Below, piece by piece: positions 10,812 to 35,489 of a DNA stretch of 64,000 nt; position 1 is the stretch's first letter, and each line of letters starts with the position of its first letter. The translations under genes were made by a program, and so were the position numbers. The DNA comes from Candidatus Uhrbacteria bacterium. GTDB lineage: Bacteria > Patescibacteriota > Patescibacteriia > UBA9934 > UBA10169. The stretch covers positions 155,519 to 219,518 of the forward strand of contig JACPJO010000005.1 of assembly GCA_016187485.1 (NCBI GenBank), written 5' to 3'. The notes below the pieces were generated by a model. That model did no database searches. It was not told the origin of the DNA and saw nothing but the letters and a program-made list of their open reading frames with translations.

Positions 10812-10863
10812 GCAACACCACTAACCCGGCCGCGTTGGCCGGACATGCGGAGGAATGCGAGAG

Positions 10864-11844: not shown

Positions 11845-11866
11845 CGCCGCCGTCCCTTTCAGTTCC

Positions 11867-11899
11867 TTTCTCTCGGGGACCCAATCGTCCCCATTCCCC
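11867..11899. repeat. 34-bp direct repeat TTTCTCTCGGGGACCCAATCGTCCCCATTCCCCC (copy 1), contains a 6-bp-stem hairpin
   Basis: Identical sequence at 12800-12832, each just downstream of a GC-rich gene. Confidence 0.8.
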
Positions 11900-12009
11900 C
11901 CGTCCGGATGATAAAATACATTCGTCCTGACAGGTGGAGTAGTAGGTCCTTCACTTAACACGCGTAACGGCTGGCATCCATAAGCCCAGCCAGGCGCACT
12001 GGATAGATC

Positions 12010-12237
12010 ATGAACGACTGGACTGCCGTGACACTCAGTTTCTTGGCCCTCATCGTCATGTGCCTCGTCGACTACAGCCACGGGCAGGTCTACGGAATCG
12101 AGAACGGTTGCTGCCCCTACCGGCCCGCCCCCGCCTTCGAGTGGGGGTGCACGTCGGTCGAAAAGGACATCTGCACCGACGAAGATCCGCGTGACTACGT
12201 CTACGGCGACGTGATGAGCGACTCTTCCAGCCGCTGA
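12010..12237 (+). CDS. small secreted cysteine-rich protein (signal peptide, 6 Cys)
   Basis: N-terminal hydrophobic segment AVTLSFLALIVMCLV followed by CCPY...GC...C. GC-rich. Confidence 0.45.
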   Translation: MNDWTAVTLSFLALIVMCLVDYSHGQVYGIENGCCPYRPAPAFEWGCTSVEKDICTDEDPRDYVYGDVMSDSSSR

Positions 12238-12299
12238 AGAAGCCCCAACCCCACTTGCGCATCCGAGCCCTACGCAGGCCAGGCGCATGGAGACGTTCG

Positions 12300-14697: not shown

Positions 14698-15471
14698 TTA
14701 CTGCATCCACACAAAAAAGAGTAGAGCAGCCAGCATCAGGCGGTACGCGCCAAACCAGAGATATTTGCCTTTTGTAAGAAAGCGCAAAAGCCAGCGTACG
14801 GCAACAAGGCCGCTAAAGAAGGCGGCAAGAAATCCCACGAAAAGTGGGATCGCATCTATGGCCACTCCGCCCGACGCAATATCGAAAAACTTTTTGAGCC
14901 CAGCCACAGCAGTAATAGGAATACCGACAAGAAACGCGAGGCGAGCCGCCGCAATGCGATCAAGTCCGGCGCTCAAGCCAGCGATAATTGAGATGCCCGA
15001 TCTGGATGTGCCAGGAACAAGCGCCACGGCTTGAGAGAGAGTGACGAGAAGGGTTTGACGCCAGTTGCCCACAAGAGGTTGCTCGTTGCTGGTTGCTGGT
15101 TGTCGGTTCGAGTGCCAATCGGCGAAAATGAGCATGGCGCCCCAAAACGCGAGCGAACTGGCCACCACTGGCAACGACCGCAGATCGTTCACGCGTTCAA
15201 GCCACAGTCCGACAAGACCCACAGGAATGGTTGAGAAAAGGATCACCCAAAGCAGATGACGACGGTGAGTTACTACCTCGACAATGTCCCTCCAAAAAAC
15301 CGACAGGATGACCAGAAGAGTGGCCAAGTGGATCGTTGCATCAAAGGCCACATCTTGAAGAGGCCAGCCGAAAAGCTCCGGAAAAATTACCAAGTGCCCC
15401 GAACTCGAGATCGGGAGAAATTCCGTGATGCCCTGCACGATGCCGAGGATGAGAGCCTGGAGGATGGTCAC
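14698..15471 (-). CDS. uppP: undecaprenyl-diphosphate phosphatase
   Basis: ITEFLPISSSGH and PGTSRSG motifs; 8 TM helices; GTG start. Confidence 0.85.
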   Translation of the reverse strand: MTILQALILGIVQGITEFLPISSSGHLVIFPELFGWPLQDVAFDATIHLATLLVILSVFWRDIVEVVTHRRHLLWVILFSTIPVGLVGLWLERVNDLRSLPVVASSLAFWGAMLIFADWHSNRQPATSNEQPLVGNWRQTLLVTLSQAVALVPGTSRSGISIIAGLSAGLDRIAAARLAFLVGIPITAVAGLKKFFDIASGGVAIDAIPLFVGFLAAFFSGLVAVRWLLRFLTKGKYLWFGAYRLMLAALLFFVWMQ

Positions 15472-15486
15472 AACTATTCTCTTATT

Positions 15487-15506
15487 CCTGCCTGCCGGCA
15501 GGCAGG
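15487..15506 (-). terminator. 20-bp perfect GC-rich palindrome CCTGCCTGCCGGCAGGCAGG downstream of the last paralog
   Basis: Read directly, 9 bp downstream of the stop at 15515. A/T-rich flank. Confidence 0.5.
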
Positions 15507-15514
15507 CTCACGAA

Positions 15515-17254
15515 TTAGCCGCGCGAGGTTCCTGATTCAATAAACTTATAGTAACACTCTTTGCAGTATACCGCCCGTTTTGGATACACCTTATTCTTCC
15601 CAACGGAAATGCTCTTTTGGCACTCCGCGCACAATGCCGGCTCCACGATCGCCATGTTGAGCTCGGCGTAGAGGTCCATGAGACGCCGCGTGGCATGCGA
15701 CCTGGGCGGCGCAATCTTGAGCGCGCGGTAAATCGCAAGCTCGGGCACGAGGTATGAAAACCGCCGGTCGGAGACATCATCGCGATACACCGTCTTCGTC
15801 ATGGCGTCGTCTGCGCGATCAGGAATCTCGCTCGTTGCATGGATCATGCTCGCATCCATAGCGGCACCCTCCGCTCCCTCGCTTGTCACATCAACATCAG
15901 GCATACCGAGTTTGATCAGCTCCTCCTTCGGCGTGTCATAGATGTAGCGTGCGCCGCATCCGCTCCAGTGCTGGGTCGAAAACTTCGCCGATGGTAAGTC
16001 ACCATACTCTCCCCTCTCAAGCATCGCGCACTTGAGTGCATCCACGGTCTTCCAATATTCCTCCTCCGTGTATTGCTTGTTCAAGATGCAAAACTTTTTG
16101 TGCTTGAGCCCAATGCATCCGAAACAGTTTTCGCAATCCATGCACGCATGACAATATTCGCACTCAAGACAGCGCGTGAGAAGCGAGAGCGAGTAGCGAG
16201 TCTTCGAGCTGTACCCATTCCCGATACCATAGTAGCAATCCGACGCACCATTTACCGCCGCACACATGTAGCAATCGCTCGACGGCACACCATAGGCGAT
16301 ATTGACCCATCCAAGATCGGCACACCCTTTGCAGACATAAAATGCATCGCGGATGCGCGTTGAATCGTAAATGTATTCCCCCGTCACGTCTTCTGCATGC
16401 ACGTTCCAGTTTTCCGGCCAGGCGGCGTGCGCAATAAGATCTTTGAAGCGCTGCTCGTATTCCGCGCGTACCGCATACGAAGAAAGGTCAACCTCTGAAC
16501 GTCGTTTCTTCCACTCCGCTTCAGTAAGCTGTTCATTCCACCAAAGATATTTCGCATTGCGTTTATTCGTCGCACCGAAGCAAAACTCGCAGTTTCGACA
16601 ATCGAAGAGAAACGCACCTGAGAGACAATCGAGGCATTCGCGCAGATACAAACAGTCCGCGATGTTTTGAGAATGGACGACATTGTAGGAGCGCGAGATG
16701 TGGGTGGAGAGCGCGACCTCGGCAGAGTCTTCCATGTCCGATACGTTCATCGAAAAAACAGAATTCTTTGATTTGCACGCCAAGACGAAGTAGCTGTTCT
16801 GATCCCCACGCGAGATGAACGCGAGAGAATTTTCCGGCTGGACGTAATTAAAGTTCGCCGAACGTGGTACGGCAAGAGACAGCTTGTAGAGTTGATCGAC
16901 AAACGAGCGAGAGAGATCAAGCTCGCGTCCGTGCGACGTGAAGTCTTGCTTGAACCACTCGTCATCCGGGATCACACGGATGCCACTTGCGGGGTGAACG
17001 ACGGAGATAAGCGGTTTGCCGCCATTCGGTTGTGCGTTGTACCACATGTCAAACATGACGATGTGGGCATTCATGAGCTTCATCCGCGTCATGGGCGCAT
17101 ATTTCGACGGCGGGACGTTGTATTTGCGATACTGCGCAATCTCCGTGTCGTCCATCATCCACTTCGTCCCAAGCACAGCACACGTCCGCTCCCCGGGTTT
17201 GGTAGCATCGAGGATGGCTTTGACTTTTGCATCGTAGTTGGAGGTTTTGCTCAT
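15515..17254 (-). CDS. cysteine-rich paralog family protein P6 (about 27 Cys, no signal peptide, C-terminal CxxC...CxxC zinc-ribbon-like motif)
   Basis: N-terminus MSKTSNYDAKVKAILDATKPGERTCA, FLFDCRNCEFCFGATNKR, CENCFGCIGLKHKKFCILNKQY. Shares these blocks with five neighbours. Confidence 0.7.
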   Translation of the reverse strand: MSKTSNYDAKVKAILDATKPGERTCAVLGTKWMMDDTEIAQYRKYNVPPSKYAPMTRMKLMNAHIVMFDMWYNAQPNGGKPLISVVHPASGIRVIPDDEWFKQDFTSHGRELDLSRSFVDQLYKLSLAVPRSANFNYVQPENSLAFISRGDQNSYFVLACKSKNSVFSMNVSDMEDSAEVALSTHISRSYNVVHSQNIADCLYLRECLDCLSGAFLFDCRNCEFCFGATNKRNAKYLWWNEQLTEAEWKKRRSEVDLSSYAVRAEYEQRFKDLIAHAAWPENWNVHAEDVTGEYIYDSTRIRDAFYVCKGCADLGWVNIAYGVPSSDCYMCAAVNGASDCYYGIGNGYSSKTRYSLSLLTRCLECEYCHACMDCENCFGCIGLKHKKFCILNKQYTEEEYWKTVDALKCAMLERGEYGDLPSAKFSTQHWSGCGARYIYDTPKEELIKLGMPDVDVTSEGAEGAAMDASMIHATSEIPDRADDAMTKTVYRDDVSDRRFSYLVPELAIYRALKIAPPRSHATRRLMDLYAELNMAIVEPALCAECQKSISVGKNKVYPKRAVYCKECYYKFIESGTSRG

Positions 17255-17269
17255 ACAAACTATTCGCTT

Positions 17270-17281
17270 ATTCGCACGAAT
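17270..17281. promoter_or_regulatory. ATTCGCACGAAT (imperfect copy of the ATTCGCGCGAAT motif), 15 bp upstream of the P6 start
   Basis: Part of the conserved TATTCGCTTATTCGC(A/G)CGAATTAG block. Confidence 0.45.
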
Positions 17282-17290
17282 TAGCCGCGC

Positions 17291-19033
17291 TTACCCGTTC
17301 TTTTCAATAAACCCATGATAACAATTCATGCAGTATACTCTCCGCTCGGGAAACGTGAAATTTTTATACGTGGTCGTTTTGGCGCTGCAGGAGGCACAGA
17401 CAACTTCGATCGCAAAGGGGGAGTTCGCGTGGCGGAGCCAGTGTGTGAGGCGCGTAATAAAATGCCGCCGTGGGAATGGCCAGCGCTTTTCTTTGTAGAT
17501 CGCAAGCTCTTTTGGCACGATGCTGAAATCGCGATCGAGCTCCTCATCATGGATCGGCGTGTTCACATGCTCGGACGAGACCTCATCAATGCAATCCGGG
17601 ATATCCTCGATGCGAAGCCGTACCACATGCGCCTCCTCCCGTTTCGGCGCAAGCACCAATCCTTGCTTTGGATCCACACGAATCGCGCCGAACCTCTCGA
17701 GGTCTCGCTCGCGGTAATCAAAGTACACGGCACCCGTCGAGTGTTCAAAACCCGAGAGCGAAAACTTTCCGGGAAAAAACTCGCCATAACTTCCGTCATC
17801 GAGCATCGCGCACTTGAGCTCATCTACACGTCTCCAGTATTCCTCTTTTGGATACGGCTTGTTGAAGATGTGAAACTCCTTTTTGTGAAGTCCAGCACAC
17901 CCGAAGCAACGCTGGCAATCATCGCAGACGGCACAATACTCAAGTTCTACTCCATTGCTGCATCCCATCGTAAACTTGTTATCAGCGCCGTTCGTGTCCC
18001 CCGTGCTCATGTAGGTCCGTGTCGCCCAGCCAAATCCACTACAATACGCGCAATCGTTCGCCTCAATGCCGAATCGGCAGTGGTAACAGCCCGTGCACTT
18101 GTCGAGCCAATAACTATATCCATCGCAATTAACACAAAAGTTCAGGTGCTCACCGCGACTGTTTTCGTTTCGGATCCCGAAGGAGGCTGGCCAGATACTC
18201 TGTTCGTGCCAGAGTCTGTAGAACTTCTCGAGCCACGCATCTGCGGTCGATCGACAGCCGAGATCTACTTCCGCGCGCCGCTTTTTCCATTCTGATTCCG
18301 AGAGTTGTTCGTTGAACCACAGATATTTTTTCTGCCGTTTGTTCGTAGCCCCGAAGCACAGCTCGCAATCGCGGCAATCAAAAAGGAAGGAACTTTTGAG
18401 ACACCGATAACAGCTGAAGAGATATTCCGAATCGGCAATATTATGCGAATCGCTTATGGAAAACGAGCGGGCAATGTGTGTTCCATTGACCACGTCCACA
18501 CAGTCCTCCGCCTGAAATGCTGCGTAGGTGTAGAGAGAGCGAAGAGCCTGCGAGGCGCACGACATATAACTCTCCACGCTTTTCCACGAACCGACCGCGA
18601 CCGACGCAGCATCCACATCACGATTGCGTTTGGCACGCATGGGAACCATCGTCACGAGATCCCAGATTTGATCGAACACCGGACGGGAGGGATCAATGTC
18701 TTGATACGTGGAGGAAAAATCATGTTTGTACCAATCAATGTCCTCAACGACTTTGAACGGAAGATCGGGATGAATGGCAGAGACGATCGGCTTGCTCGAG
18801 AACACATCACGGTTCCAAAAAATGGCCAACCCGGTGTTGTAGCCATTCAGCATATTCATGCGCGTACCAGGTTTCACTTTCGACGGCGGGACACGAAACT
18901 TTTTACAGATAGCGATTTCGCTTTCATCCAACACCCACGTCTCGCCCGTCAATGCGCAAACCCGCTCCTCCCCTGCCTTCAAGCCGGCGAGGATTGCATC
19001 GAGCTTGGTGTCAAAGTTGGGTGTGTTGGACAT
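17291..19033 (-). CDS. cysteine-rich paralog family protein P5
   Basis: Start trimmed to MSNTPNFDTKLDAILAG by alignment to the paralogs. It abuts the P4 stop with a gap of about 1 bp. CDDCQRCFGCAGL motif. Confidence 0.65.
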   Translation of the reverse strand: MSNTPNFDTKLDAILAGLKAGEERVCALTGETWVLDESEIAICKKFRVPPSKVKPGTRMNMLNGYNTGLAIFWNRDVFSSKPIVSAIHPDLPFKVVEDIDWYKHDFSSTYQDIDPSRPVFDQIWDLVTMVPMRAKRNRDVDAASVAVGSWKSVESYMSCASQALRSLYTYAAFQAEDCVDVVNGTHIARSFSISDSHNIADSEYLFSCYRCLKSSFLFDCRDCELCFGATNKRQKKYLWFNEQLSESEWKKRRAEVDLGCRSTADAWLEKFYRLWHEQSIWPASFGIRNENSRGEHLNFCVNCDGYSYWLDKCTGCYHCRFGIEANDCAYCSGFGWATRTYMSTGDTNGADNKFTMGCSNGVELEYCAVCDDCQRCFGCAGLHKKEFHIFNKPYPKEEYWRRVDELKCAMLDDGSYGEFFPGKFSLSGFEHSTGAVYFDYRERDLERFGAIRVDPKQGLVLAPKREEAHVVRLRIEDIPDCIDEVSSEHVNTPIHDEELDRDFSIVPKELAIYKEKRWPFPRRHFITRLTHWLRHANSPFAIEVVCASCSAKTTTYKNFTFPERRVYCMNCYHGFIEKNG

Positions 19034-19034
19034 A

Positions 19035-20750
19035 TTATCCTCTCTCCCCAAGATACTCCCAATAGCACTTTTGACATAGAATGCGACGCATAGGAAATGT
19101 CGAGTTTCGGTACGTCGTAACTTCCGCGTGGCACTTCTCACACATCGCCTGCTCTTCACGCGGGCCGTTCGAGAACCGAAAACGGTTTTTCATGGAGAGG
19201 AATGGGTGCTCACTCGGCACGGCAACATTTTGCTTGCGGCAAAATGCCAGCTCGGCTTGTGTTACAACAAACGGACGGTGGAGAATGGGATCGAGAACAG
19301 ATTTGTTGATGAAGTTTTCCCATGCGGGATCATCGGCACGATCCGGAAGGTCGTCCGGTGAGAGAAGATCGGGCGTCGTCGATCCTATTGATGTTTCATA
19401 CATGGGGGCGCCGTGAGCACGAAGCTCGTCCGGTAAGTATTCCGCATACAAGTCACCCATCGAGAACTGGAAACCTGGCTCGGAAAATGCAGCAGGGAAA
19501 AATTCGCCGTACTCTCCACGATCAAGCATTGCACATTTCAGTTCATCGAGCTTCTGCCAATAATTCGCCTCGTCATATTGCTGATTCAGAATGCAAAACT
19601 TCTTGTGCCGTAAACCAACGCAGCCGAAACAATGCTCGCAATCATAACAGTTGAGAGAGTACTCCATGCCGATCGAACGCCACGTGCGGAAACAGAAACG
19701 GTTTTGGCTTCCCGAGAGCATGTCGCAACACTCATACATCTGTCCGCCCTTGCCACCCCAACCGGTAAACGCCGACTCTTGAAGTTCGAGCGTCGCATAG
19801 CAACGAAAGCAATCCGTTGAGTCGTAGTTGCGATAAGCAAACTTACAACGTGTTGAGTCGGAAATATGCTCCCCCGTGCACCCCTCCGAGCCAACATGGA
19901 CATACGCCGGCCAGACCGACTGACGGATCATCTCGAGAAACTGTTCATGCTGTTTTTGATACACGGCGCGCGATGAGAGATCAACTTCTTGTCGCCGCTT
20001 TTCCCATTCCTCTTTGGAAAGTTGCTCGTTCCACCACAAATACTTTTTATGCAACTGATTGCTCGCACCAAAACAGAATTCGCAATCAACGCAATCATAG
20101 AGGAATGCACTTGATGAACAGCCGTTGCAAGAAAAACAATCAACACAGCTAAAGCACTTGCTCGAATAGCTCGTCTGAAAACAAAATCGGCATCGACTGT
20201 TGTCGATCACGTCCATGCAATCTTCGTTCTCAAGACCGAGGAACGCATGAAGCACACGCCGGTTATACATAAGCGCGAAGGCCAAGTAGGCATCCTCACA
20301 CTTGATAAGGTCGACGCCGGTACAGCGAAGGTTCGAACCATCATCGCGGAGCGCCCCGACAGGAATACGGTGAGCCAGAGGAAGAAGCTGGTCGAAAAAT
20401 GATCGTTGAGAATCAAGTAACTGCCCCGGTTCTAGAAACTCTTTCGAGAACCATTCTTTATCGTGAATGATGTTAAACGGCGAGTCAGGGTGCACAAAAC
20501 TCCAGATTGACTCTCCCGTCTCGGCATGTGGTTTTTTCCAAAGCGCTAATCCCGACACAAACCCCATTAAGTGCCGCATTCTCGTATACGGCGCCCGCTT
20601 ACTCGGCGGGACGTTGAATTTTCTGTACCAGCCAATCTCTTCATCCGTCATGTTCCACTTTTCTCCCGTCAACGCACAAACTCTCTCGCCCGGCTGCGTG
20701 ACGTCGAGAATGGATTTTACTCTCAGGTCAAAATATTGAGTCTTGGACAT
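19035..20750 (-). CDS. cysteine-rich paralog family protein P4
   Basis: MSKTQYFDLRVKSILDVTQPGERVCALTGEKWNMTDEEIGWYRKFNVPPS, CEHCFGCVGLRHKKFCILNQQY. Confidence 0.7.
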   Translation of the reverse strand: MSKTQYFDLRVKSILDVTQPGERVCALTGEKWNMTDEEIGWYRKFNVPPSKRAPYTRMRHLMGFVSGLALWKKPHAETGESIWSFVHPDSPFNIIHDKEWFSKEFLEPGQLLDSQRSFFDQLLPLAHRIPVGALRDDGSNLRCTGVDLIKCEDAYLAFALMYNRRVLHAFLGLENEDCMDVIDNSRCRFCFQTSYSSKCFSCVDCFSCNGCSSSAFLYDCVDCEFCFGASNQLHKKYLWWNEQLSKEEWEKRRQEVDLSSRAVYQKQHEQFLEMIRQSVWPAYVHVGSEGCTGEHISDSTRCKFAYRNYDSTDCFRCYATLELQESAFTGWGGKGGQMYECCDMLSGSQNRFCFRTWRSIGMEYSLNCYDCEHCFGCVGLRHKKFCILNQQYDEANYWQKLDELKCAMLDRGEYGEFFPAAFSEPGFQFSMGDLYAEYLPDELRAHGAPMYETSIGSTTPDLLSPDDLPDRADDPAWENFINKSVLDPILHRPFVVTQAELAFCRKQNVAVPSEHPFLSMKNRFRFSNGPREEQAMCEKCHAEVTTYRNSTFPMRRILCQKCYWEYLGERG

Positions 20751-20761
20751 ACTATTCGCTT

Positions 20762-20773
20762 ATTCGCGCGAAT
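20762..20773. promoter_or_regulatory. ATTCGCGCGAAT perfect 12-bp palindrome, 11 bp upstream of the P4 start
   Basis: Read directly. Confidence 0.5.
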
Positions 20774-20785
20774 TAGAGATCATTG

Positions 20786-22516
20786 CTAGCCACGTTCTTC
20801 CATGTACCGAAGATAGCATGGTCTGCATAACACGCGCCGACGGCTGGAAAAAAGTGCGTTTCGGCTTGTCGTAACTGAGGTGCAGCAGATAGCGCATGTC
20901 GTTTCTTCAGGGATAGGCACATTCGAGTGGCGTACAAGGTGGAGAAGGCGAGTGAGAAAGTGCTTGTCGGGAATTGGTAATCGGTGTTTTTGATAAAAGG
21001 CAAGTTCCGCTGGTGTGATCGTGTATAAACGATTAAGTGACTCATCCAGAATTGGTTTCCCAACATGTTGGGAAACATCAATATCCAGAAGTCGGTCAGG
21101 TAGTTCAGATGCTTTGAGCAGCCCTTCGGACTCATTGATATTCCCTTTCGTAGGATCGAACGTCGGCGCGCCGAATTTCTTGAGTTCATCGTCACTATAC
21201 CCAAAGTAAAACTCCCCCATCGAAAACTGAAATCCTGTCTGCGAAAGACTCGCAGGAAAAAACATGCCGTACTCGCCACGGTCGAGCATCGCACACTTGA
21301 TCTCGTCCACCCGCTGCCAATATTCCTCTTCGCCGTACGGCTTGTTGAAAATGTGAAACTTCTTTTTTTTGAGACCGACGCAGCCAAAACAGTGCTCGCA
21401 GTCGTAGCAGTCCATGCAATATTCTAAGTCTTGGCACCGCCATGAGCGTGAGCAGAATTTGAGGTTGTGATAATACGCGATATCCGCCGAGCAGTACGCC
21501 GCGTCTCCCCACCCCAACCACACGACACTCATGCTGTCACGATCATCCAGACTCATCCAGCATTGAAAGAGGTCCGTGCTCCCTTCGACCCAGTAACTCT
21601 CGCGACATCTTGTGGCGCGCACCAAATACTCTCCCGTGCTCTCCACGTCTGTCGCAAAGTTGAAATGGTCGCGGAAATACCCTTCCCCACGAATCATCTC
21701 AAGGTATCTTTCCGAGCACTCGTTCCATGTACGCCGTGATCGGAGGTCGACCATCTCAAGACGTTTACGATACTCTCCCTCCGACAGCTGTTCGTTCCAG
21801 AATATAAATTGTTTATCCTTCTTATTCGTTGCACCGAAGCAGTCTTGGCAGCGGCTACAATCAAAGAGAAACGCGCTGTTGATACAATCACCGCATTGGA
21901 AACAATAGGTACAGTGATGCATGTTCTCGGCCGCGTTGATGTGATAGCTCTCATTTACCCGAAGGGTGTTCGTGATACAGGCCGAATCACTTCCATGAAA
22001 ACTCACCGACGCATACAAAACACGTTGTAAATCCGCTCCGCCAAACAAAAGATAGGTGTCTTGGCATTTGATCATGTCCACGCCAACGCTGTTGGTACTT
22101 GACCCCTCATCGCGCAGAGCACCCACAGGAATCGAATATGCAAGTTGTTGAAACTGAGCAAAGAATGGTTCTCCAGGATCGAGCTCTCTTGTTGTTTGTG
22201 CGAATTCACGGTTATGCCAGTCGCGGTCGGGAATCACTTGATATGGACTGTCTGGGTGCACAAACGTAAGAAGCGGCTCCTTAGTCTCCGCATGCGGCTT
22301 TTTCCAAATGGCTATCCCAACAGGAAAGCCCAGGAGCTGTTTCAATCGCGGAATCGGCGCGCAGGAATGCGGCGGCACGTTGAACTTTTTGTACCATCCA
22401 ATCTCCTCCTCGGTCATGTTCCACTTCTCCCCCGTCAACGCACAAACCCTCTCGCCAGGTTTTATCGCGTCGAGGATGGATTTTACTTTGGCATCGTAGT
22501 TAGGTGTCCGATTCAT
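20786..22516 (-). CDS. cysteine-rich paralog family protein P3
   Basis: MNRTPNYDAKVKSILDAIKPGERVCALTGEKWNMTEEEIGWYKKFNVPP, CEHCFGCVGLKKKKFHIFNKPY. Confidence 0.7.
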   Translation of the reverse strand: MNRTPNYDAKVKSILDAIKPGERVCALTGEKWNMTEEEIGWYKKFNVPPHSCAPIPRLKQLLGFPVGIAIWKKPHAETKEPLLTFVHPDSPYQVIPDRDWHNREFAQTTRELDPGEPFFAQFQQLAYSIPVGALRDEGSSTNSVGVDMIKCQDTYLLFGGADLQRVLYASVSFHGSDSACITNTLRVNESYHINAAENMHHCTYCFQCGDCINSAFLFDCSRCQDCFGATNKKDKQFIFWNEQLSEGEYRKRLEMVDLRSRRTWNECSERYLEMIRGEGYFRDHFNFATDVESTGEYLVRATRCRESYWVEGSTDLFQCWMSLDDRDSMSVVWLGWGDAAYCSADIAYYHNLKFCSRSWRCQDLEYCMDCYDCEHCFGCVGLKKKKFHIFNKPYGEEEYWQRVDEIKCAMLDRGEYGMFFPASLSQTGFQFSMGEFYFGYSDDELKKFGAPTFDPTKGNINESEGLLKASELPDRLLDIDVSQHVGKPILDESLNRLYTITPAELAFYQKHRLPIPDKHFLTRLLHLVRHSNVPIPEETTCAICCTSVTTSRNALFSSRRRVLCRPCYLRYMEERG

Positions 22517-22524
22517 ATTCGCCT

Positions 22525-22536
22525 ATTCGCGCGAAT
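22525..22536. promoter_or_regulatory. ATTCGCGCGAAT palindrome, 8 bp upstream of the P3 start
   Basis: Read directly. Confidence 0.5.
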
Positions 22537-22796
22537 TAGAGAAGAGAAATAATCTGCTTTGCGCCGGACGGCTGGTCTTTGGAAAGACGATAGAACATCT
22601 CCAGGCTCCGCTGATCACGATCAACGATATCAGCTGCAAAAAGAATCCCCAAATGCTTCGAGGTTGCTTTAAGTGATAGCTTGATCTTATTGGCAATCTC
22701 CCACACCGGTGCTTCCTCTTTTTCTCTTAGGAACTCAACGATCGCAAGCCGCCTGCGGTTCGCCAACGCCTTCAATGTACGCTCTAATTGCCTCAT
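22536..22796 (-). CDS. small ArsR/SmtB-type winged-helix transcriptional regulator (second regulator of the array)
   Basis: 86 aa. NRRRLAIVEFLRE...VWEIANKIKLSLKATSKHLGILFAADIV has the HTH_20-like layout. Preceded by an extended palindrome centred on ATTCGCGCGAAT. Confidence 0.55.
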   Translation of the reverse strand: MRQLERTLKALANRRRLAIVEFLREKEEAPVWEIANKIKLSLKATSKHLGILFAADIVDRDQRSLEMFYRLSKDQPSGAKQIISLL

Positions 22797-22802
22797 ACAA
22801 AA

Positions 22803-22834
22803 CTATTCTATCATTCGCGCGAATTAGAGAATAG
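22803..22834. promoter_or_regulatory. extended palindrome CTATTCTATCATTCGCGCGAATTAGAGAATAG upstream of the small ArsR-like gene
   Basis: Core ATTCGCGCGAAT at 22813-22824 with imperfect outer arms. Confidence 0.5.
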
Positions 22835-22849
22835 ATTTATCCACTATGT

Positions 22850-23485
22850 TTAAGTCGATAGACGTAGGAATGAATTATGTGTCTTTATGACTTCCACGTG
22901 TCCGTCTTGCACAAGAACCGCCTCATCATCCGTTAAGCGGGTGCTCATGACTCCATGCTGTCGCTCATATTCAGCGATCTGTTCTTCTTCAGCCGGTTCA
23001 TAGTGCGGAGTAATGGTGAGATCGACAAGCCCCATACCGCGCATATCCTTGAGATCAACAATGTTTTTATCTCCCCCGACACCAAGTCCTGAATGTCCAA
23101 TATCCTTCCCCGCCACTATCGAGCCGGCGCTTACTCCGATGTAGATCCCCCCTTTTTCTAAAAATGACTTTACTGCTACATCGAAGCCGCTCTCGCGAAT
23201 ATATTTCATGAGGTAATAGGTGTTGCCGCCTTGGACATAGATAATGCGACTGCGCTCAAGTGCTCTTACGGTTTCATCCTGCGTCTTACCAGCCAGATCA
23301 TACTCCTCAACAATCCAACCCATCTGCTCCATTACGACACGGTCTCCGTCCACATAGTGCCAATCCGATTCCGGAACGGACGCCGTGATGATATGCAACA
23401 CATGGGGCGCTCCCTCAAGAGGAGCGACAAACGATTCGATCTCGTGTTTCATTCTCATCCCCGCTGATGTAAGAAAAAGTTTCAT
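22850..23485 (-). CDS. S51-family peptidase (peptidase E / alpha-aspartyl dipeptidase-like)
   Basis: MKLFLTSAG N-terminus, YVQGGNTYYL and YIGVSAGSIVAG (Ser nucleophile in GxSAG) as in PepE/cyanophycinase. Confidence 0.7.
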   Translation of the reverse strand: MKLFLTSAGMRMKHEIESFVAPLEGAPHVLHIITASVPESDWHYVDGDRVVMEQMGWIVEEYDLAGKTQDETVRALERSRIIYVQGGNTYYLMKYIRESGFDVAVKSFLEKGGIYIGVSAGSIVAGKDIGHSGLGVGGDKNIVDLKDMRGMGLVDLTITPHYEPAEEEQIAEYERQHGVMSTRLTDDEAVLVQDGHVEVIKTHNSFLRLST

Positions 23486-23493
23486 GTTCGCCT

Positions 23494-23505
23494 ATTCGCG
23501 CGAAT
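23494..23505. promoter_or_regulatory. ATTCGCGCGAAT palindrome, 8 bp upstream of the S51 peptidase start
   Basis: Read directly. Confidence 0.5.
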
Positions 23506-23517
23506 TAGAGATTGCCC

Positions 23518-25251
23518 CTAGCCGTTCTTCTCGAGATACTCCAAATAACACTTCTTGCAATACACCTTCCGATCTGGATACTTTGCATTGAATGAGATCG
23601 TAACCTCGGCGGAACATGCCACGCAAACGCGCTTCTCGAACCCGCATCCTTGCATCGTACGGAAAAGCTCGATCACGCGCGAGATGAAGTGCTCCTTCGG
23701 TGGAGCAAGACGGAGTTTTCGATAGAGTTCAAGTTCGGCGGGAAGAAAAGCAAACTTTCTGTTTGCCTTCGTATCGAAAATAGGGGTTCTTGTCCATTCG
23801 TCCGTTACCTCGTCGAGTTTGTCGGGGATCTCATCCGGAGATTTCATCGCCGCCCCGGCAGTCTCCACGCCGCACGCACCGTCACTGCATTGTTCGAGCA
23901 TGTTGGCTCCAAGTTTTTTCATCTCCTCAAGACTTGCACCGCAATACAGCATCGAGCCCCCATGCGGCGCGTACGTCGTTGCCATCGACAAGAGGAAGAA
24001 CCTCCCATACTCACCGCGCTCGAGCATCGCACACTTGAGCTCGTCCACACGTCTCCAATACTCCCCAGGAGAGTACGGCTTGTTGAAGATGTGAAACTCT
24101 TTGTGCTGAAGCCCCACGCACCCGAAACAGTTTTTGCAGTTGTAACAGGTGATGCAGTACTCGCAAGTATCCGACCCGATCGTGCGCCAGCACCCGACAA
24201 GCCGCGTGGAATTCGCCGCCGTCATGGACATATAACACTCGGTTGCATTGAATGGACCAAAGCAATCGAAGCACCCATGCGTGTTATGCCCGTATGCGCA
24301 ACGATAATTGTCCGTCGAGTGTTCCGTGAGCGTAAAGCACTCTCGGCAGTTCGTGCAGTCGGTGAGATACTCTCCTGTTGAATCGATCGCTTTCTCATTG
24401 AAGTTCTCCGGCCAGATGGTTTCCGTCTGAAGAAGGTTCTCGAACTTCGCAAATTGCTCCTCCAGGACTCGGCGCGAAGAGAGATCCACGGAGACCCGAC
24501 GTTTCTCCCACTCTTCTTTCGAGAGTTGCTCGTTCCACCAGAGATACTTTCGCCGACGCTTGTTCGTAGCGCCAAAACAATATTCACAATCGCGGCAGTC
24601 AAAGAGAAACGCAGAGTCCACGCAATCGAATGACTCACGCGCCACAAGGCAACGGTACATTCGATCGCAATGAAGCATGTTCCAGCACTGATTGGACTTG
24701 TTCACGGTGATCATGTCGGCACATTCTTCCCCATCAATTAGAAGCACGCTGTAGTAGGCATTCTTTGCTTTGCAGGCCAGCGTGAAATAACAATTCTGGT
24801 CGCCCATGGAGACGAGCGAGATGGAGTTCACCGCCGGAACAATCGTCGAGGTCGCGATCATGGGAATCTTTTTCTGAAGCTCCCGCAGTTGCGGGAAGAG
24901 AGACTGCGCAGGATCGACCTCCAAAGAAATATCCGAGAAGTCCTTGTTGAACCACTCCGCATCTGGCAACACACGAACGCCGGAGGTGGGATGATGAAAC
25001 GACAACACAGGCACACCCGTCTCAAAATGTTTGTTCCACCAAAATTGGTACCCCGTCGTGTAATGCGCCATCAAAACCCATCGCGTGCGTTGTGAATAAC
25101 TCGACGGGGGTACATTCAAACGTCGGCACCAATCGATCTCCTCTTGCGTAAGCACCCACTTGTCGCCGAGCAACGAACAAACCCTCTCGCCGGGTTGGGT
25201 AGCATCAAGGATGACTTTGATTTTCGCGTCGTAACTTGGAGTCCGGGACAT
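23518..25251 (-). CDS. cysteine-rich paralog family protein P2
   Basis: MSRTPSYDAKIKVILDATQPGERVCSLLGDKW, FLFDCRDCEYCFGATNKR, CKNCFGCVGLQHKEFHIFNKPY. Confidence 0.7.
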   Translation of the reverse strand: MSRTPSYDAKIKVILDATQPGERVCSLLGDKWVLTQEEIDWCRRLNVPPSSYSQRTRWVLMAHYTTGYQFWWNKHFETGVPVLSFHHPTSGVRVLPDAEWFNKDFSDISLEVDPAQSLFPQLRELQKKIPMIATSTIVPAVNSISLVSMGDQNCYFTLACKAKNAYYSVLLIDGEECADMITVNKSNQCWNMLHCDRMYRCLVARESFDCVDSAFLFDCRDCEYCFGATNKRRRKYLWWNEQLSKEEWEKRRVSVDLSSRRVLEEQFAKFENLLQTETIWPENFNEKAIDSTGEYLTDCTNCRECFTLTEHSTDNYRCAYGHNTHGCFDCFGPFNATECYMSMTAANSTRLVGCWRTIGSDTCEYCITCYNCKNCFGCVGLQHKEFHIFNKPYSPGEYWRRVDELKCAMLERGEYGRFFLLSMATTYAPHGGSMLYCGASLEEMKKLGANMLEQCSDGACGVETAGAAMKSPDEIPDKLDEVTDEWTRTPIFDTKANRKFAFLPAELELYRKLRLAPPKEHFISRVIELFRTMQGCGFEKRVCVACSAEVTISFNAKYPDRKVYCKKCYLEYLEKNG

Positions 25252-25263
25252 AAACTATTCTCT

Positions 25264-25277
25264 AATTCGTACGAATT
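25264..25277. promoter_or_regulatory. AATTCGTACGAATT perfect 14-bp palindrome (variant of the motif), 12 bp upstream of the P2 start
   Basis: Read directly; overlaps the P1 stop codon. Confidence 0.45.
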
Positions 25278-27018
25278 AGCCGACCTGTTCGAGATACGCA
25301 AGGTAGCACGCCGTGCAGTAAATCTTCCGTTTTGGAAACGCGATGTTTTTGTGTATCACCACTTCCTTTGAGCACTTTTGACATAGGCCCTGCTCGGCCA
25401 TAAAAGTATTCCCTAGTCGAGCGAGCGCACGGATGCGTGTCATGAAATGTCGCCGAGGAAATGGAAGTCTCATGTGCGTATAAAACGCCACATCTTCTTT
25501 TCGTACGGTAAAGGGACGTTCAAGCTCTGGATCCATAATAGGCCTTCCAGCAAACAACGCGCAGGCCTCCAGTCCATCCGGCAACAACTCCGGATCCATA
25601 GACTCACCATACACGGCCGATTGCGAGAGAGAGATGACCGCCCCGCGCTTCGCATCAAAAACAATTCCACCGAGACGAACAACCTCCTCGTCGGTAAGCG
25701 GTGCATGAAGCTCCCCACCCCACTGGATGCCCGACGGAGAAAAGTCTCCAGGGAAAAAGTTCCCGTACTCGTCCCGATCAAGCATCGCGCATTTCAATTC
25801 GTCGAGCTTGTTCCAATATTCTTCCTCAGCATAGGCCTTGTTGAGAATATGAAACTTCTTGTTCTTGAGTCCAACACATCCGAAGCAGTTTTCACAATCG
25901 GAACAATTGAGACAGTACTCGATGTTTTGACAGCGCATGCACGCCGTCGAGAACAAGACGCGACTCCCGTTGATAACACCAACCGCCATGTAGCTGTCCG
26001 ATGTCCCGTCAATTCCGCTCGTGTACGCATTCCCCTGGACGACGGAATGACAAAGCTGGCAGGCGTACATATCCGTCGCAAACGAAAGTCCGAAACCGTC
26101 GGTGCAACGCACGCACTTCATGAGATACTCTCCACTCGACGCCTCACAGCCGACATTGAAGTTTTCTGGCCATACCGCTTCCGTTCGCAACATCTCGAGA
26201 TAGCGTTGCATCCATGACTGAAAAACTTTCCAGGACGTGAGATCCACTTCTTTCATTTTTTGCTCATACGTCTCTTTCGAAAGTTGTTCATTTGCGAAGA
26301 CGTACTTCCGATTGCGCAAATTGCTCCCGAGAAAGCAGGACTCGCAATTGCGGGAATCAAAGAGGAAATCGCAAGACACGCATTCCTGACATTGCATCGC
26401 CACCCGACAGCGATACATTTTTGTAGAGCGGTTGAGCGAAAAGCTTTCTTGTGACGATGTCCCGATAAAGGTGTCCTCGCAATCTTCCAGCTCTTTGCAC
26501 ATGAACCCGTACGCGGAACGTCTGGTGTTTTTCACGCCGCCAAAAACCATAAACGAATCTTCAGCAGAAATAATCCCGACACCCATACTGTTCACAGGGG
26601 TACCAAAGGTGCGTGTCGCTTGAAATGGCACGGCGTGTAATACCTGGCGAAGTTGTGGAAAAAATGGTTGCGCGATATCAAGACCCCTCGCTCCGCGATC
26701 GCTCCAATCCTGTGCGTGCCACAGAGAGTCCTCAACGACCGGAATGGGATTGTCCGGATGGATATAGGAGACGATGAGTTTCTTGGTCACGGCATCGGTA
26801 TTCCACCAGATGGTAACACCGGAGTTGAAACCGAACAGGAGTTTCCGCCGAATCGTCGGCGAAATATCAGAAGGTGGGACCTGGAACTTACGCATCCAGA
26901 TAAGCTCTTCTTCCGTCATCATCCATCTCTCACCTGAAACCGGGCACACTCGCTCGCCGGGTTGTGCGGCGTCAAGGATCGCTTTGATCTGTACATCGTA
27001 GTTGGGGGTATGAGACAT
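25276..27018 (-). CDS. cysteine-rich paralog family protein P1
   Basis: Start trimmed to MSHTPNYDVQIKAILDAAQPGERVCP. CENCFGCVGLKNKKFHILNKAY. C-terminal CQKCSKEV...YCTACY. Confidence 0.7.
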   Translation of the reverse strand: MSHTPNYDVQIKAILDAAQPGERVCPVSGERWMMTEEELIWMRKFQVPPSDISPTIRRKLLFGFNSGVTIWWNTDAVTKKLIVSYIHPDNPIPVVEDSLWHAQDWSDRGARGLDIAQPFFPQLRQVLHAVPFQATRTFGTPVNSMGVGIISAEDSFMVFGGVKNTRRSAYGFMCKELEDCEDTFIGTSSQESFSLNRSTKMYRCRVAMQCQECVSCDFLFDSRNCESCFLGSNLRNRKYVFANEQLSKETYEQKMKEVDLTSWKVFQSWMQRYLEMLRTEAVWPENFNVGCEASSGEYLMKCVRCTDGFGLSFATDMYACQLCHSVVQGNAYTSGIDGTSDSYMAVGVINGSRVLFSTACMRCQNIEYCLNCSDCENCFGCVGLKNKKFHILNKAYAEEEYWNKLDELKCAMLDRDEYGNFFPGDFSPSGIQWGGELHAPLTDEEVVRLGGIVFDAKRGAVISLSQSAVYGESMDPELLPDGLEACALFAGRPIMDPELERPFTVRKEDVAFYTHMRLPFPRRHFMTRIRALARLGNTFMAEQGLCQKCSKEVVIHKNIAFPKRKIYCTACYLAYLEQVG

Positions 27019-27079
27019 AACGCCCACAGTCTATCTCATTTCCCCCAAAAACTAAAAACCCTGCGCCCCGCCGATCTCC

Positions 27080-27101
27080 CAACCTTTCAATTGAAGGGTT
27101 G
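27080..27101. promoter_or_regulatory. operator-like 22-bp inverted repeat CAACCTTTCAATTGAAGGGTTG (one mismatch), about 60 bp upstream of P1
   Basis: Read directly; near-identical to 27342-27363. Overlaps the 3' end of the ArsR-like gene. Confidence 0.55.
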
Positions 27102-27332
27102 TTTGATAAACCGACGCGCTGGCGAGGAGAGAACCACTTCACCAGCTCGGTTTTGTTCAATCAGGCCCACCCGAGCCAGTCGTTTCAAGTGCGAAGATGT
27201 TGCTTGCTCTGAAATGTCGAGTTCGTGGGCAAGATCACAAACAGCAGCCTTGCCGTGTTCGTGAAGGTACATGAAGACAGTGAGACGTCGTTCATTGCCC
27301 AAAGCTCGGAAAAAATCTGCCAGAATTTTCAT
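27087..27332 (-). CDS. ArsR/SmtB-family transcriptional repressor
   Basis: Trimmed to MKILADFFRALGNERRLTVFMYLHEHGKAAVCDLAHELDISEQATSSHLKRLARVGLI, the canonical ArsR HTH with a VCDL motif. Confidence 0.7.
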   Translation of the reverse strand: MKILADFFRALGNERRLTVFMYLHEHGKAAVCDLAHELDISEQATSSHLKRLARVGLIEQNRAGEVVLSSPARRFIKQPFN

Positions 27333-27341
27333 AGATGCCCC

Positions 27342-27363
27342 CAACCTTTCAATTGAAAGGTTG
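27342..27363. promoter_or_regulatory. perfect 22-bp palindrome CAACCTTTCAATTGAAAGGTTG, 10 bp upstream of the ArsR start (autoregulatory operator candidate)
   Basis: Read directly; reverse complement identical. Confidence 0.6.
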
Positions 27364-27393: not shown

Positions 27394-28839
27394 CTACACA
27401 ATAATCTCTCCCATATCAATCGGCTTGGCTTCGGGTTCTTTTGCGACCGAGTCGCCGCCCTCCAATTCTTTTTCTACTTGCACGCGAGGCGTTGCGTACT
27501 TCTCGCGCGACTGTTTAACAATACGCTCGACAAAATTTCCATGCTTGGGCTTGTCCACGGTAAGCACATCGGCAGAAAACGGATCCCATCGGCGCCCGTC
27601 AATCGTCATTTTCACATAAATCTCCCGCTCAGAAAGATTAATCATGTCGTTCACCGAGAAAACTGGCTGCATTTCGTTGGACATAATCTCCGCATCCTCC
27701 GCGCTGATCTGAAATGACACGATAGAGGCGACGTTGCCAAACAAAGATGACCGCAGCGATGGCGAAAGTTGGGAGAGGTTTTGGTTGGCCACCGTCAAAC
27801 AAAAGCCGAATTTGCGCGCTTCGGCCAAAATATTTTCAAATGTCCTTGTGGCGATATTTTGAAACTCGTCTACATAGAGGTAGAACGGGGTACGATCTTT
27901 CTCCGGCAGACGGATGCGCTGCATGGACGCTTGATAGAGTTTTGTCACAAGTACCGCGCCAAAGAAAGCAGATTTCTCGTCTCCCACACGACCTTTCGAC
28001 AGATTCACGAGCAGAATCTTTTTGTTCTGCATGATCTCATACAAGTCGATCTTGCTTTTTTTCTGTCCAAAAATATTGCGGAGCAGCGGATCAGTAAGCA
28101 ACTGGCCGAATTTATTGAGAAGAGGCGACACCGCTTCCGCATCATACCGCTGCGACCACTCCGGAAACTCAATCGCCCAAAACCGTCGCACCACCGAATC
28201 TTTGATATGCTCAATTACCTTACCGCGAAATGGACCCGAGGAAAGCATGGAGACAATGCCGTTCAACGTTCCGTCGGGATAATCAATCATGGCCAGACAC
28301 GAAAAGCGCAGTAAGTGTTCAATGCGTGGAGACCAGTCGGAGGCAAATTGCTTTTTGAAAATCTCGATAATCGAGTCCGTCACCATATGCTTATCCTCGT
28401 CGGCAACGTTGGCAATCGGGTTAAACGCTACGGGAAAATCACGGTCGGCTGGGTCAATCAGCACCACATCATCAATACGATTCTCCGGAATGAACTCCAA
28501 CATGGAGTTGATCAAATCTCCATGCGGATCCACAACACCCACCGCGTGGCCAAAATGAATATCCGCTCGCATGAGAAGTTCCATGAGTTTTGTTTTCCCC
28601 ACGCCAGACTTCCCAATCACATACAAATGGCGACGACGATCGCGGCGCTTAATACCAAAAATGTACCGCTTCGCTGCATAGCCGGTGGAAAAGTTTGTTT
28701 TACCAAAAAGAGAAATCTCTTCCGGTGCGACGTCTTGCGGGGTCGGGAGAGTATCGGGTGGTTCATGACGCCGAGCAACAAACGTCTCCAGTTCTCCGTC
28801 GCCCGCCGTTGTCGGTGATTGAAAAAGTGGATCGGCCAT
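27394..28839 (-). CDS. FtsK/HerA-superfamily P-loop ATPase, TraD/VirD4- or DUF87-like (paralog 1)
   Basis: Walker A GKSGVGKT, DPHGD motif, Walker B FYLYVDEFQN followed by AEARKFG. 481 aa. Confidence 0.65.
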   Translation of the reverse strand: MADPLFQSPTTAGDGELETFVARRHEPPDTLPTPQDVAPEEISLFGKTNFSTGYAAKRYIFGIKRRDRRRHLYVIGKSGVGKTKLMELLMRADIHFGHAVGVVDPHGDLINSMLEFIPENRIDDVVLIDPADRDFPVAFNPIANVADEDKHMVTDSIIEIFKKQFASDWSPRIEHLLRFSCLAMIDYPDGTLNGIVSMLSSGPFRGKVIEHIKDSVVRRFWAIEFPEWSQRYDAEAVSPLLNKFGQLLTDPLLRNIFGQKKSKIDLYEIMQNKKILLVNLSKGRVGDEKSAFFGAVLVTKLYQASMQRIRLPEKDRTPFYLYVDEFQNIATRTFENILAEARKFGFCLTVANQNLSQLSPSLRSSLFGNVASIVSFQISAEDAEIMSNEMQPVFSVNDMINLSEREIYVKMTIDGRRWDPFSADVLTVDKPKHGNFVERIVKQSREKYATPRVQVEKELEGGDSVAKEPEAKPIDMGEIIV

Positions 28840-28842
28840 ACA

Positions 28843-30699: not shown

Positions 30700-30700
30700 A

Positions 30701-35373: not shown

Positions 35374-35417
35374 AATTGGGGAGAAGTGTAGCGGAGGGAG
35401 AAAAGGAGCGCAAGCGA

Positions 35418-35446: not shown

Positions 35447-35489
35447 GGGATGTCCATACTGGACACCTCACGCCAAGAAAGGAAGCGAC

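Follow-up and report, generated by a model that had tools for sequence, protein, structure and literature searches.

The minus strand of a 64,000-nt window of contig JACPJO010000005.1 (GCA_016187485.1, Candidatus Uhrbacteria bacterium, positions 155,519-219,518), whose numbering is used for all coordinates given here, carries between 15.5 and 27.4 kb six co-oriented, full-length paralogous genes together with a gene for an S51 peptidase and two genes of the ArsR type. The paralogs, labelled A to F following the order of transcription, encode proteins of 571-580 aa that align from end to end with pairwise identities of 34-46%, and a tblastn search puts the number of family copies in the window at exactly six. 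Spacers within the array measure 1-68 nt. An earlier note on this DNA had described the six genes with four shared motif blocks, all of which are present in the consensus of the six-protein alignment, two genes abutting by about 1 bp, which are D and E (the stop codon of D lies 1 nt from the start of E), and the interruption of the array by an S51 peptidase gene and a small ArsR-like gene with an ArsR/SmtB gene at its head, which profile searches bear out (Table 1). The ends of the interval in that note, 15487 and 27363, correspond to two palindromes and not to gene ends. Immediately upstream of this interval, at 27394-32446, lie conserved partner genes for a DUF8128 protein and two ATPases, and it is suggested tentatively that this ATPase module has the family proteins as its clients, which would most likely be its translocated substrates.

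Both upstream ATPases possess a nucleotide-binding domain of the VirD4/TrwB type with Walker A and B motifs, GKSGVGKT and DEFQN being invariant in the ATPase alignment, and TrwB was the best PDB hit for them. They also match the HerA, DndH and mad8 models in PADLOC. Neither ATPase has a transmembrane (TM) segment, and neither virB4 nor a relaxase gene is among the window genes scanned. A C-terminal CxxC-x17-CxxC ribbon is present in 49 of 53 homologues of the TrwB-type ATPase versus none of 99 homologues of the TraD-type ATPase, and from its sequence it appears to be the same PF23477-type module that ends the family proteins, whose own matches to the model are below threshold. In the TrwB-type ATPase of the window the ribbon is followed by a long low-complexity tail that is rich in Pro, Ser, Thr, Ala and Gly, contains the basic patch KRKRRRHKK and is acidic at its end. 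The DUF8128 protein likewise ends in a tail of about 150 disordered residues; its assignment to DUF8128 (PF26449) rests on precomputed annotations of homologues.

The linkage between the family and the ATPases was found in both directions. The family profile retrieved 73 GTDB loci, of which 23 have the ATPase pair next to the family genes (within 10 kb). For the reverse comparison, metagenome contigs were searched with the alignment of the TraD-type ATPase alone, which gave 80 loci. At least one family gene is present in 64 of these 80 loci and in 46 of the 50 that are at least 10 kb long, nearly always in the same orientation as the ATPase gene; by a rough estimate, about 10-15% of randomly chosen 20-kb stretches of such a genome would include a family gene. 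Gene orders vary and include DUF8128-TrwB-TraD-FAMn, TrwB-FAM-TraD and DUF8128-TraD-FAMn-TrwB (FAM, family gene), with ATPase identity of only about 50%. Since the linkage persists at this level of divergence despite the shuffled order, it points to selection and not to inherited synteny. In genomes of the Gracilibacteria/Peregrinibacteria-like kind, among them a 1.37-Mb contig, DUF8128 is fused N-terminally to an ATPase in proteins of 742-755 aa. These fused genes have two or three family genes directly upstream of them, and the DUF8128 protein of the window aligns to the N-terminal part of the fused proteins (E 5e-8 and 7e-9). Because of the two-way linkage, the shuffled gene order, the DUF8128-ATPase fusion and the shared ribbon, a functional coupling of the family to the ATPase module is considered probable. 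The presence of SecDF upstream of DUF8128 also recurs in many loci.

Type IV coupling proteins (T4CPs) that stand apart from other secretion genes have been noted in these bacteria before. A survey from 2025 reported 5,713 VirD4-type T4CPs in 2,918 genomes of Patescibacteria, about two per genome, with only 148 of them near virB4; the authors left their role open and considered exaptation for another function possible, and the survey makes no mention of the family described here (PMC12102498). No literature on the family, DUF8128, PF13451 or PF23477 was found, and the link between the family and the orphan T4CPs appears to be unreported.

Table 1. Coordinates and strands of array genes, partner genes and palindromic elements in the 64,000-nt window
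Feature	Coordinates	Strand	Evidence or remarks
DUF8128 protein, 581 aa	30701-32446	-	N-terminal TM helices, VirB4 N-domain/EccE-like cytoplasmic domain, disordered tail
TrwB-type T4CP-like ATPase, 627 aa	28843-30726	-	PF10412, PF12696, PF23477; C-terminal CxxC-x17-CxxC ribbon
TraD-type T4CP-like ATPase, 481 aa	27394-28839	-	PF10412, PF02534, PF12696; TrwB closest solved relative; no TM segment, no zinc ribbon
Second palindrome, upstream of ArsR1	27340-27363	.	perfect 22-nt core at 27342-27363
ArsR1, 81 aa, ArsR/SmtB-type winged helix, heads array	27087-27332	-	NF033788, 63.9 bits (cutoff 55)
Second palindrome, 24 nt, CCCAACCTTTCAATTGAAGGGTTG, between ArsR1 and A	27078-27101	.	flanks ArsR1
Paralog A, 580 aa, first family gene	25276-27018	-	family profile E = 3e-163; reciprocal best hits in 7 assemblies
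First element, upstream of B	25252-25282	-	spacer copy
Paralog B, 577 aa, 35 Cys	23518-25251	-	weak PF23477/TIGR04272 match at C-terminal ribbon
First element, upstream of S51 peptidase	23481-23511	-	spacer copy
S51 (PepE-like) peptidase	22850-23485	-	PF03575, 102.5 bits
First element, upstream of ArsR2	22800-22830	-	spacer copy
ArsR2, 86 aa, ArsR/SmtB-type winged helix	22536-22796	-	NF033788, 64.1 bits (cutoff 55)
First element, upstream of C	22512-22542	-	spacer copy
Paralog C, 576 aa, copy modelled	20786-22516	-	AlphaFold2 pLDDT 95.5, pTM 0.93
First element, upstream of D	20749-20779	-	spacer copy
Paralog D, 571 aa	19035-20750	-	46% identity to C; no reciprocal best hit elsewhere
Paralog E, 580 aa	17291-19033	-	72% orthologue in UBA10169
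First element, upstream of F	17257-17287	-	core ATTCGYGCGAAT followed by GCGAATAG repeat
Paralog F, 579 aa, last of array	15515-17254	-	67% orthologue in UBA10169; family profile match
Perfect 20-nt G+C-rich palindrome CCTGCCTGCCGGCAGGCAGG, between F and BacA gene	15487-15506	.	within degenerate copy of first element

The sequences of the family are public only as hypothetical proteins, and they are not covered by any family model, structure or paper. None of A to F matches a family in Pfam, NCBIfam or PADLOC above its cutoff. The best matches below threshold are those of B alone, to PF23477 (17.5 bits, cutoff 27) and TIGR04272 (15.1 bits, cutoff 36), and a 117-sequence profile compared with PDB sequences aligned only over the last ~35 residues of the family, with an E value of about 1, to S27e and LIM zinc ribbons. 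The proteins had thus been called uncharacterised with good reason. A search of 1.84 billion cluster representatives with a hidden Markov model (HMM) of the family gave 3,805 hits at E < 1e-3 and 1,538 at E < 1e-30, and the source annotations, where given, read "hypothetical" or "zinc-ribbon domain containing protein". Organisms named include Uhrbacteria, Paceibacterota, other Parcubacteria lineages, Gracilibacteria and Peregrinibacteria, and one branch fused to a GNAT domain is labelled Bdellovibrionales. The family is large and specific to Patescibacteria. For several loci (L009, L010, L024, L025, L055 and others) the labels "uncultured Gammaproteobacteria" or "Candidatus Saccharibacteria" were judged unreliable because the loci have the gene content and synteny of Uhrbacteria-type arrays, and these labels were excluded from the taxonomic range. 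A tblastn search of phage and plasmid collections gave no match, and the family is therefore not obviously mobile.

Co-oriented tandem arrays of 2-9 copies are the rule, with 1 to 16 or more full-length copies per genome or assembly, and in some genomes of ~1 Mb the family takes up about 2-3% of the coding capacity. The genome from which the window comes has at least two further copies elsewhere (locus L005). For seven of its eight copies, a reciprocal best hit exists in each of 4-16 assemblies out of 21 others, with identities of 37-72%, and for each of these seven the best identity across genomes (49-72%) exceeds any identity within the genome (34-46%). The paralogs are old, individually maintained orthologous groups and not a fast-switching variable family; the remaining copy, D, is by its sequence probably a younger duplicate of C.

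Paralog C, which is identical (100%) to NCBI HYW18_03650 from a metagenome-assembled genome of Candidatus Uhrbacteria, was modelled with AlphaFold2, and the predicted local distance difference test (pLDDT) value and predicted template modelling (pTM) score of the model are given in Table 1. The model has two narrow beta-solenoids built of [Cys/Ser]-x-[Asp/Asn] triplets. The predicted order of domains is a treble-clef-like module, a small linker domain, two units that each consist of a solenoid, a CxxCxxCFG cap and a helix, a second treble-clef-like module, and a zinc ribbon; both treble-clef-like modules are degenerate in the window copies. Profile-profile alignment shows that this symmetry reflects internal duplication, as residues 190-257 match residues 340-407 (99.8%, E 1e-29) and residues 24-66 match residues 490-532 (hhalign, 99.1%, E 4e-19). 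When 659 family members were aligned to one HMM for the analysis of repeats and Cys conservation, the solenoids were seen to have a strict period of three residues: Cys, Ser or a small aliphatic residue, then a variable or aromatic residue, then Asp, Asn or Gly. Conservation among A to F is highest in the N-terminus and the caps (0.72-0.82) and lowest in the solenoid bodies (0.41-0.48).

Foldseek comparison of the model with known structures retrieved no known fold. Narrow beta-solenoids such as the Tenebrio antifreeze protein (1ezg), the ryegrass ice-binding protein (3ult), curli CsgA (8c50) and the left-handed beta-helix (LbH) acyltransferases share only 2-10% identity with the paralogs, and their Foldseek template modelling (TM) scores are at most 0.10. 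The repeat of the paralogs is [C/S]-x-[D/N] and not the 12-residue TCTxSxxCxxAx or the hexapeptide [LIV]-G-x2-[STAV]-x, and the Hexapep model of Pfam gave no hit. Unlike these narrow solenoids, the window paralogs have Cys residues that are not disulfide-paired and solenoids that are embedded between zinc modules in proteins of ~575 aa. With no close structural relative, the modelled triplet architecture is apparently new. The zinc modules resemble zf_Tbcl (PF13451) and zf_Tbcl_2 (PF23477/TIGR04272), small modules of unknown function that would account for less than 15% of a family protein. The terminal ribbon, in which the CxxC pairs are spaced by x19, scores below the cutoff of the zf_Tbcl_2 HMM. 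Unlike zf_Tbcl, the N-terminal module of the six window copies keeps one of four Cys, so the four ligands of PF13451 are not present in them; the homology of the module is itself supported by the hhalign result, and at their N-terminus distant members come close to the PF13451 cutoff or, like P0230 with 24.7 bits (cutoff 24), reach it.

The Cys content of paralogs A to F is 27, 35, 28, 32, 29 and 27, respectively, and their isoelectric points (pI) are 5.6-6.1. The earlier note had counted about 27 Cys in the last protein and seen no signal peptide in any of the six, which agrees with the absence of a hydrophobic N-terminus or TM segment from A to F in a hydropathy scan, made with no dedicated signal-peptide predictor. 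In the solenoid bodies Cys and Ser occupy the same columns (for example C 0.56/S 0.36 and C 0.45/S 0.43), and the Cys are conserved in only 20-55% of sequences. Because they exchange with Ser in this way, most of the Cys look like core or ladder residues of a very narrow solenoid and not like metal ligands or obligatory disulfides. A disulfide ladder was considered and rejected, as pairwise covariation of the solenoid Cys columns was not seen (best phi 0.53) and the Cys count is odd in four of the six proteins.

A second class of Cys is conserved. The last turn of the first solenoid keeps C211, C220, C223 and C226 as Cys at 0.85-0.96, the last turn of the second keeps C370 at 0.82, C379 at 0.98, C373 at 0.66 and C376 at 0.74, and the terminal ribbon keeps C541, C544, C564 and C567 at 0.87-0.98. 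Many relatives have two further four-Cys sites, 25/28/53/56 and 491/494/519/522, each of which co-varies as a unit (phi 0.66-0.97); at columns 28, 53 and 56, which co-vary with phi 0.83-0.97, Cys is found in 40-49% of relatives. Both sites have been lost from the window copies, which retain only C25. The absence of iron-sulfur motifs proposed in the earlier note holds in part, since the radical SAM CxxxCxxC and the full ferredoxin CxxCxxCxxxCP motifs are absent and there is neither a Fer4 or Radical_SAM hit in Pfam nor a fold match, but a conserved CxxCxxC triad (C220/C223/C226) is present.

It is proposed that the six genes would give rise to cytoplasmically made proteins of ~65 kDa that are clients of the ATPase module whose genes directly precede theirs. 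The protein would dock on the ATPases through its conserved termini and caps, which include a ribbon of the kind carried by the TrwB-type ATPase, and the variable solenoid bodies would provide each ancient paralog with its own target. The ATPase hexamer would then pass these proteins on to be exported, perhaps into the host cell of the episymbiont. In this genome, two small ArsR-type repressors may add local control at two array-specific palindromes. That a family protein is a client which docks on the module is slightly favoured, and that it is specifically a translocated substrate is a more tentative suggestion. This last step is suggested because the module is similar to the platform that type IV and type VII secretion systems (T4SSs and T7SSs) have on the cytoplasmic side, because such ATPases typically precede arrays of their substrates, because copy number varies widely between genomes, and because the termini and caps are conserved and the solenoid bodies variable. 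For a protein with its site of action in the cytoplasm of another cell, zinc modules and reduced Cys would be suitable features.

Established examples of a translocation ATPase with an array of its substrates behind it are the VirD4 protein of Bartonella with the Bep effectors, and EccC/EssC of T7SSs with the Esx, PE/PPE and LXG proteins. Like the VirD4/TrwB T4CPs, the window ATPases belong to the FtsK/HerA superfamily and match TrwB_AAD_bind, T4SS-DNA_transf and TraG-D_C, and as in the VirB/VirD4-bep locus of Bartonella, co-oriented tandem genes for divergent paralogs adjoin the ATPase genes. Unlike VirD4/TrwB, the window ATPases lack an N-terminal TM domain, there are two paralogous ATPases with a separate DUF8128 anchor, and genes for virB4, a relaxase and a channel are not nearby. 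The window paralogs differ from the Bep effectors in that they are beta-solenoids with zinc ribbons and have neither a BID-like domain nor an unstructured charged tail. The division of the ATPase between two polypeptides and the arrays of paralogs after the ATPase genes are shared with T7SSs; equivalents of EccB, EccD and MycP, as well as helical hairpins of the WXG100 type, are missing from the window module. The best structural match of DUF8128 is the N-domain of VirB4 and not EccE, a similarity of fold only (6-9% sequence identity), and the DUF8128-ATPase fusion of other Patescibacteria has a two-domain layout that resembles VirB4 (TrwK). Unlike VirB4, DUF8128 and the ATPases of the window are encoded by separate genes, DUF8128 lacks a P-loop, the ATPase domains are VirD4/TrwB-like in sequence, and the module does not lie within a T4SS locus.

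Several points weigh against export by this module. Substrates of T4SSs are normally unfolded, and zinc ribbons and a very stable solenoid would be unusual among them. The unstructured C-terminal tail that carries classical T4SS signals is absent from the family. No channel-forming protein is encoded in the cluster, virB4 is missing from the window, and TM segments are absent from the fused DUF8128-ATPase proteins. The ATPases are not encoded at secondary loci such as L005 of this same genome and L002, and the GNAT-fused branch follows a gene for the GTPase Der among housekeeping genes in a neighbourhood free of T4CPs. Linkage may be partly historical, as streamlined genomes keep synteny for a long time. 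Finally, the T4CP homologue of S. epibionticum was reported to be non-essential (PMC12102498); the transposon-sequencing paper on S. epibionticum names neither a T4CP nor zinc (PMC10633639).

Alternatively, the family proteins could be intracellular adaptors or cofactors that remain in the cytoplasm, where their treble-clef and ribbon modules would bind nucleic acid or some other macromolecule for presentation to the FtsK/VirD4-like ATPases, possibly in DNA uptake, DNA processing or defence, with a specificity that differs by paralog. The gene linkage and the ribbon common to the TrwB-type ATPase would be expected here as well. So would the three ancestral four-Cys modules, whose Cys columns co-vary as units, the HerA, DndH and mad8 matches of the ATPases, and the absence of a TM segment from the fused DUF8128-ATPase proteins, while the Cys-to-Ser interchange and the odd Cys counts fit a reducing compartment. 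The last ~100 residues of the proteins are mostly net basic, as would suit an adaptor, but the rest of the protein is acidic and so is the protein as a whole, as its pI indicates. Two of the three zinc sites have been lost from all six window copies with no sign of decay elsewhere, a fixed subunit of a machine would not usually vary in copy number between 1 and 16 or more, and the paralogs match no defence model in PADLOC. An adaptor, the main rival to the client reading, is considered rather unlikely.

It is less likely still that the family proteins are autonomous metalloproteins or enzymes in which the Cys of the caps (C211, C220, C223, C226 and C370-C379) bind Zn or an Fe-S cluster for a redox or catalytic role, and that the ATPase neighbourhood is conserved synteny without mechanistic coupling. 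The contrast between cap Cys conserved at 85-98% over the 659 sequences and body Cys at 20-55% would agree with such a role, as would the CxxCxxC spacing, the loci without ATPases, the GNAT-fused branch and one fusion to an inositol-monophosphatase-like domain. Paralog A, though, has Ser at position 220, and in some relatives, such as P0190, most of the second-cap Cys are absent. No His, Asp, Glu, Ser or Lys that resembles a catalytic residue is conserved across the family, no enzyme was matched by fold or sequence in the PDB profile search or with Foldseek, and the adjacency to family genes in 92% of the longer ATPase-seeded loci, the shuffled gene order and the gene fusion are hard to explain by drift. 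The two fusions are the P0249 type, a branch labelled Bdellovibrionales in which the family protein is fused N-terminally to a GNAT acetyltransferase (L006, 8001-10196), and the single member P0282.

The earlier note had offered as one hypothesis a metal-responsive regulon in which ArsR-type regulators control Cys-rich proteins for metal buffering or storage. Two genes above the NCBIfam cutoff for the ArsR/SmtB family, which PF01022 also matches, 27-35 Cys per protein and array-specific palindromes that resemble operators speak for it. As in ArsR/SmtB metalloregulators, both small genes pass NF033788 and adjoin palindromes of operator size. Unlike the metal sensors of this family, however, ArsR1 and ArsR2 both lack the Cys site of alpha3/alpha3N (CxC) and the Asp/His/His/Glu site of alpha5. 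ArsR2 lacks Cys and has one His, and the only Cys of ArsR1 is in the sequence AVCDL; with no ligand set in either protein, nothing in the sequences indicates a metal as the signal. Storage is opposed by the sharing of most Cys columns with Ser, at a core position of a rigid repeat, and by a confident, ordered fold unlike that of metallothioneins. Nor do the regulators and the peptidase accompany the family. Of the 80 loci seeded with the ATPase, 6 have an ArsR-like gene, as do three of the other loci seeded with the family, which is about 6% and thus less than 10% of related loci, and an S51 homologue is near one other locus only, several kb from the family genes, and in none of the 80 ATPase-seeded loci. 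What stands of the proposed regulon is therefore the array-specific palindromes and their association with ArsR-like genes; sensing and storage of metal are not borne out and are considered very improbable. In this case, Cys-rich proteins next to an ArsR gene do not mean metal biology.

The palindromes are of two types. The first element is a 31-nt sequence, ctcTAATTCGCGCGAATAGGCGAATAGtt, in which a core palindrome ATTCGYGCGAAT is followed by a repeated GCGAATAG. It lies some 20-25 nt before the start codons of B, the S51 peptidase gene, ArsR2, C, D and F, and its six sites, versus 0.21 expected in 64 kb, are confined to the spacers of the array. A degenerate copy precedes the BacA gene at 15472-15514. 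In three cases the TAA of the element is the stop codon of the upstream gene, and no obvious Shine-Dalgarno sequence is seen for the genes that follow the element. Clusters in other genomes, some of them distant, usually have one or two copies, mostly upstream of a family gene, and 12 of 21 exact sites fall within the 2.2% of sequence that lies upstream of family starts. Almost identical copies occur in the distant Parcubacteria loci L095, L127 and L146. Orthologues of ArsR2 lie inside the arrays of L021/L081, L065, L085, L102 and L118, and in L102 a copy of the element that is perfectly palindromic over 30 nt lies on either side of the ArsR-like gene (20417 and 20803), an arrangement that the second palindrome also has around ArsR1. 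The element is present in 7 of 10 loci with an ArsR-like gene versus 6 of 148 without one (Fisher p = 4e-7, the loci not being independent of one another).

Since the spacers fold as RNA no better than shuffled sequences (z -0.1 to -1.9), a reading of the first element as an RNA hairpin was rejected and a site at the DNA level is preferred; the element may be an operator, part of a promoter or a translation signal. The second palindrome, CCCAACCTTTCAATTGAAAGGTTG, precedes both ArsR1 and paralog A and is absent from all 161 other loci. The two copies that flank ArsR1 could serve in autoregulation, or could be the footprint of the insertion of a small regulator gene. From the sequences, it is a reasonable inference that two ArsR-type repressors with two types of operator act on the array, the candidate sites being TAATTCGCGCGAATAGGCGAATAG for ArsR2 and CAACCTTTCAATTGAAAGGTTG for ArsR1. 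The spacer that contains CCTGCCTGCCGGCAGGCAGG is the only one that folds clearly better than shuffled sequences as RNA (-23 kcal/mol, z = -2.8), and this palindrome may mark the end of the array transcript. A scan for promoters and terminators between 14.5 and 33.5 kb gave sites that were fewer or no more numerous than in shuffled sequence, and so defined no boundaries of operons.

The S51 peptidase is a local insertion and not a conserved partner, and the interruption of the window array by this gene and the ArsR gene is one of several lineage-specific insertions. The array of L004 is interrupted at 9279-9986 by a gene for a 235-aa protein with a weak match to IS200-like Y1 transposases, and at 15233-15634 and 17656-18057 by genes for two 133-aa proteins without known identity. 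In L001 an alpha/beta hydrolase gene at 13469-14113 closes the array.

The other alternative in the earlier note, a contingency or antigenic-variation family of switchable surface proteins, is suggested by tandem arrays of divergent copies whose number varies between genomes, but it is largely refuted by the absence of a signal peptide or TM segment, by the absence of simple-sequence repeats in or before the array genes, by a nucleotide identity of only 60-75% between copies, which indicates no recent gene conversion, by the orthology of seven of the eight copies and by the constant length of the proteins.

Patescibacteria are a very large and mostly uncultured branch of the bacteria with genomes of about 1 Mb. 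With the association described here, their orphan T4CPs gain a constant genetic partner in an unannotated family with thousands of members, and the role of these T4CPs becomes a question that can be approached experimentally. Should the proteins prove to reach host cells, the phylum would have in them its first candidate family of effectors shared across much of its range. A hitherto unrecognised translocation system that spans the phylum, with DUF8128 as the VirB4-N-domain/EccE-like anchor, two orphan VirD4-like ATPases and the solenoid family as dedicated cargo that is delivered into or onto the host cell in support of the episymbiotic lifestyle, is regarded as rather improbable.

With regard to gene starts, the true start of paralog E is the internal MSNTPNFD, and ArsR1 likely starts with the ATG at 27332 rather than the TTG at 27419. 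In the wider window, genes for SecA, SecD (with a peptidyl-prolyl isomerase insertion) and SecF lie upstream, and genes for BacA, an HD-domain protein, MnmA and TypA lie downstream. Scans of the window for Rfam families, at gathering thresholds, and for tRNA genes were empty. The SecD homologue (33367-35466, 699 aa) has an unusual architecture in which the peptidyl-prolyl isomerase domain, of the PpiC type, occupies residues ~281-388 between the P1 N-terminal and P1 head subdomains. Two minus-strand open reading frames, at 10678-12288 (536 aa) and 36218-37489 (423 aa), have no Pfam match, and the first of these lies in the sole stretch of the window with a G+C content of about 0.62 (elsewhere about 0.54).

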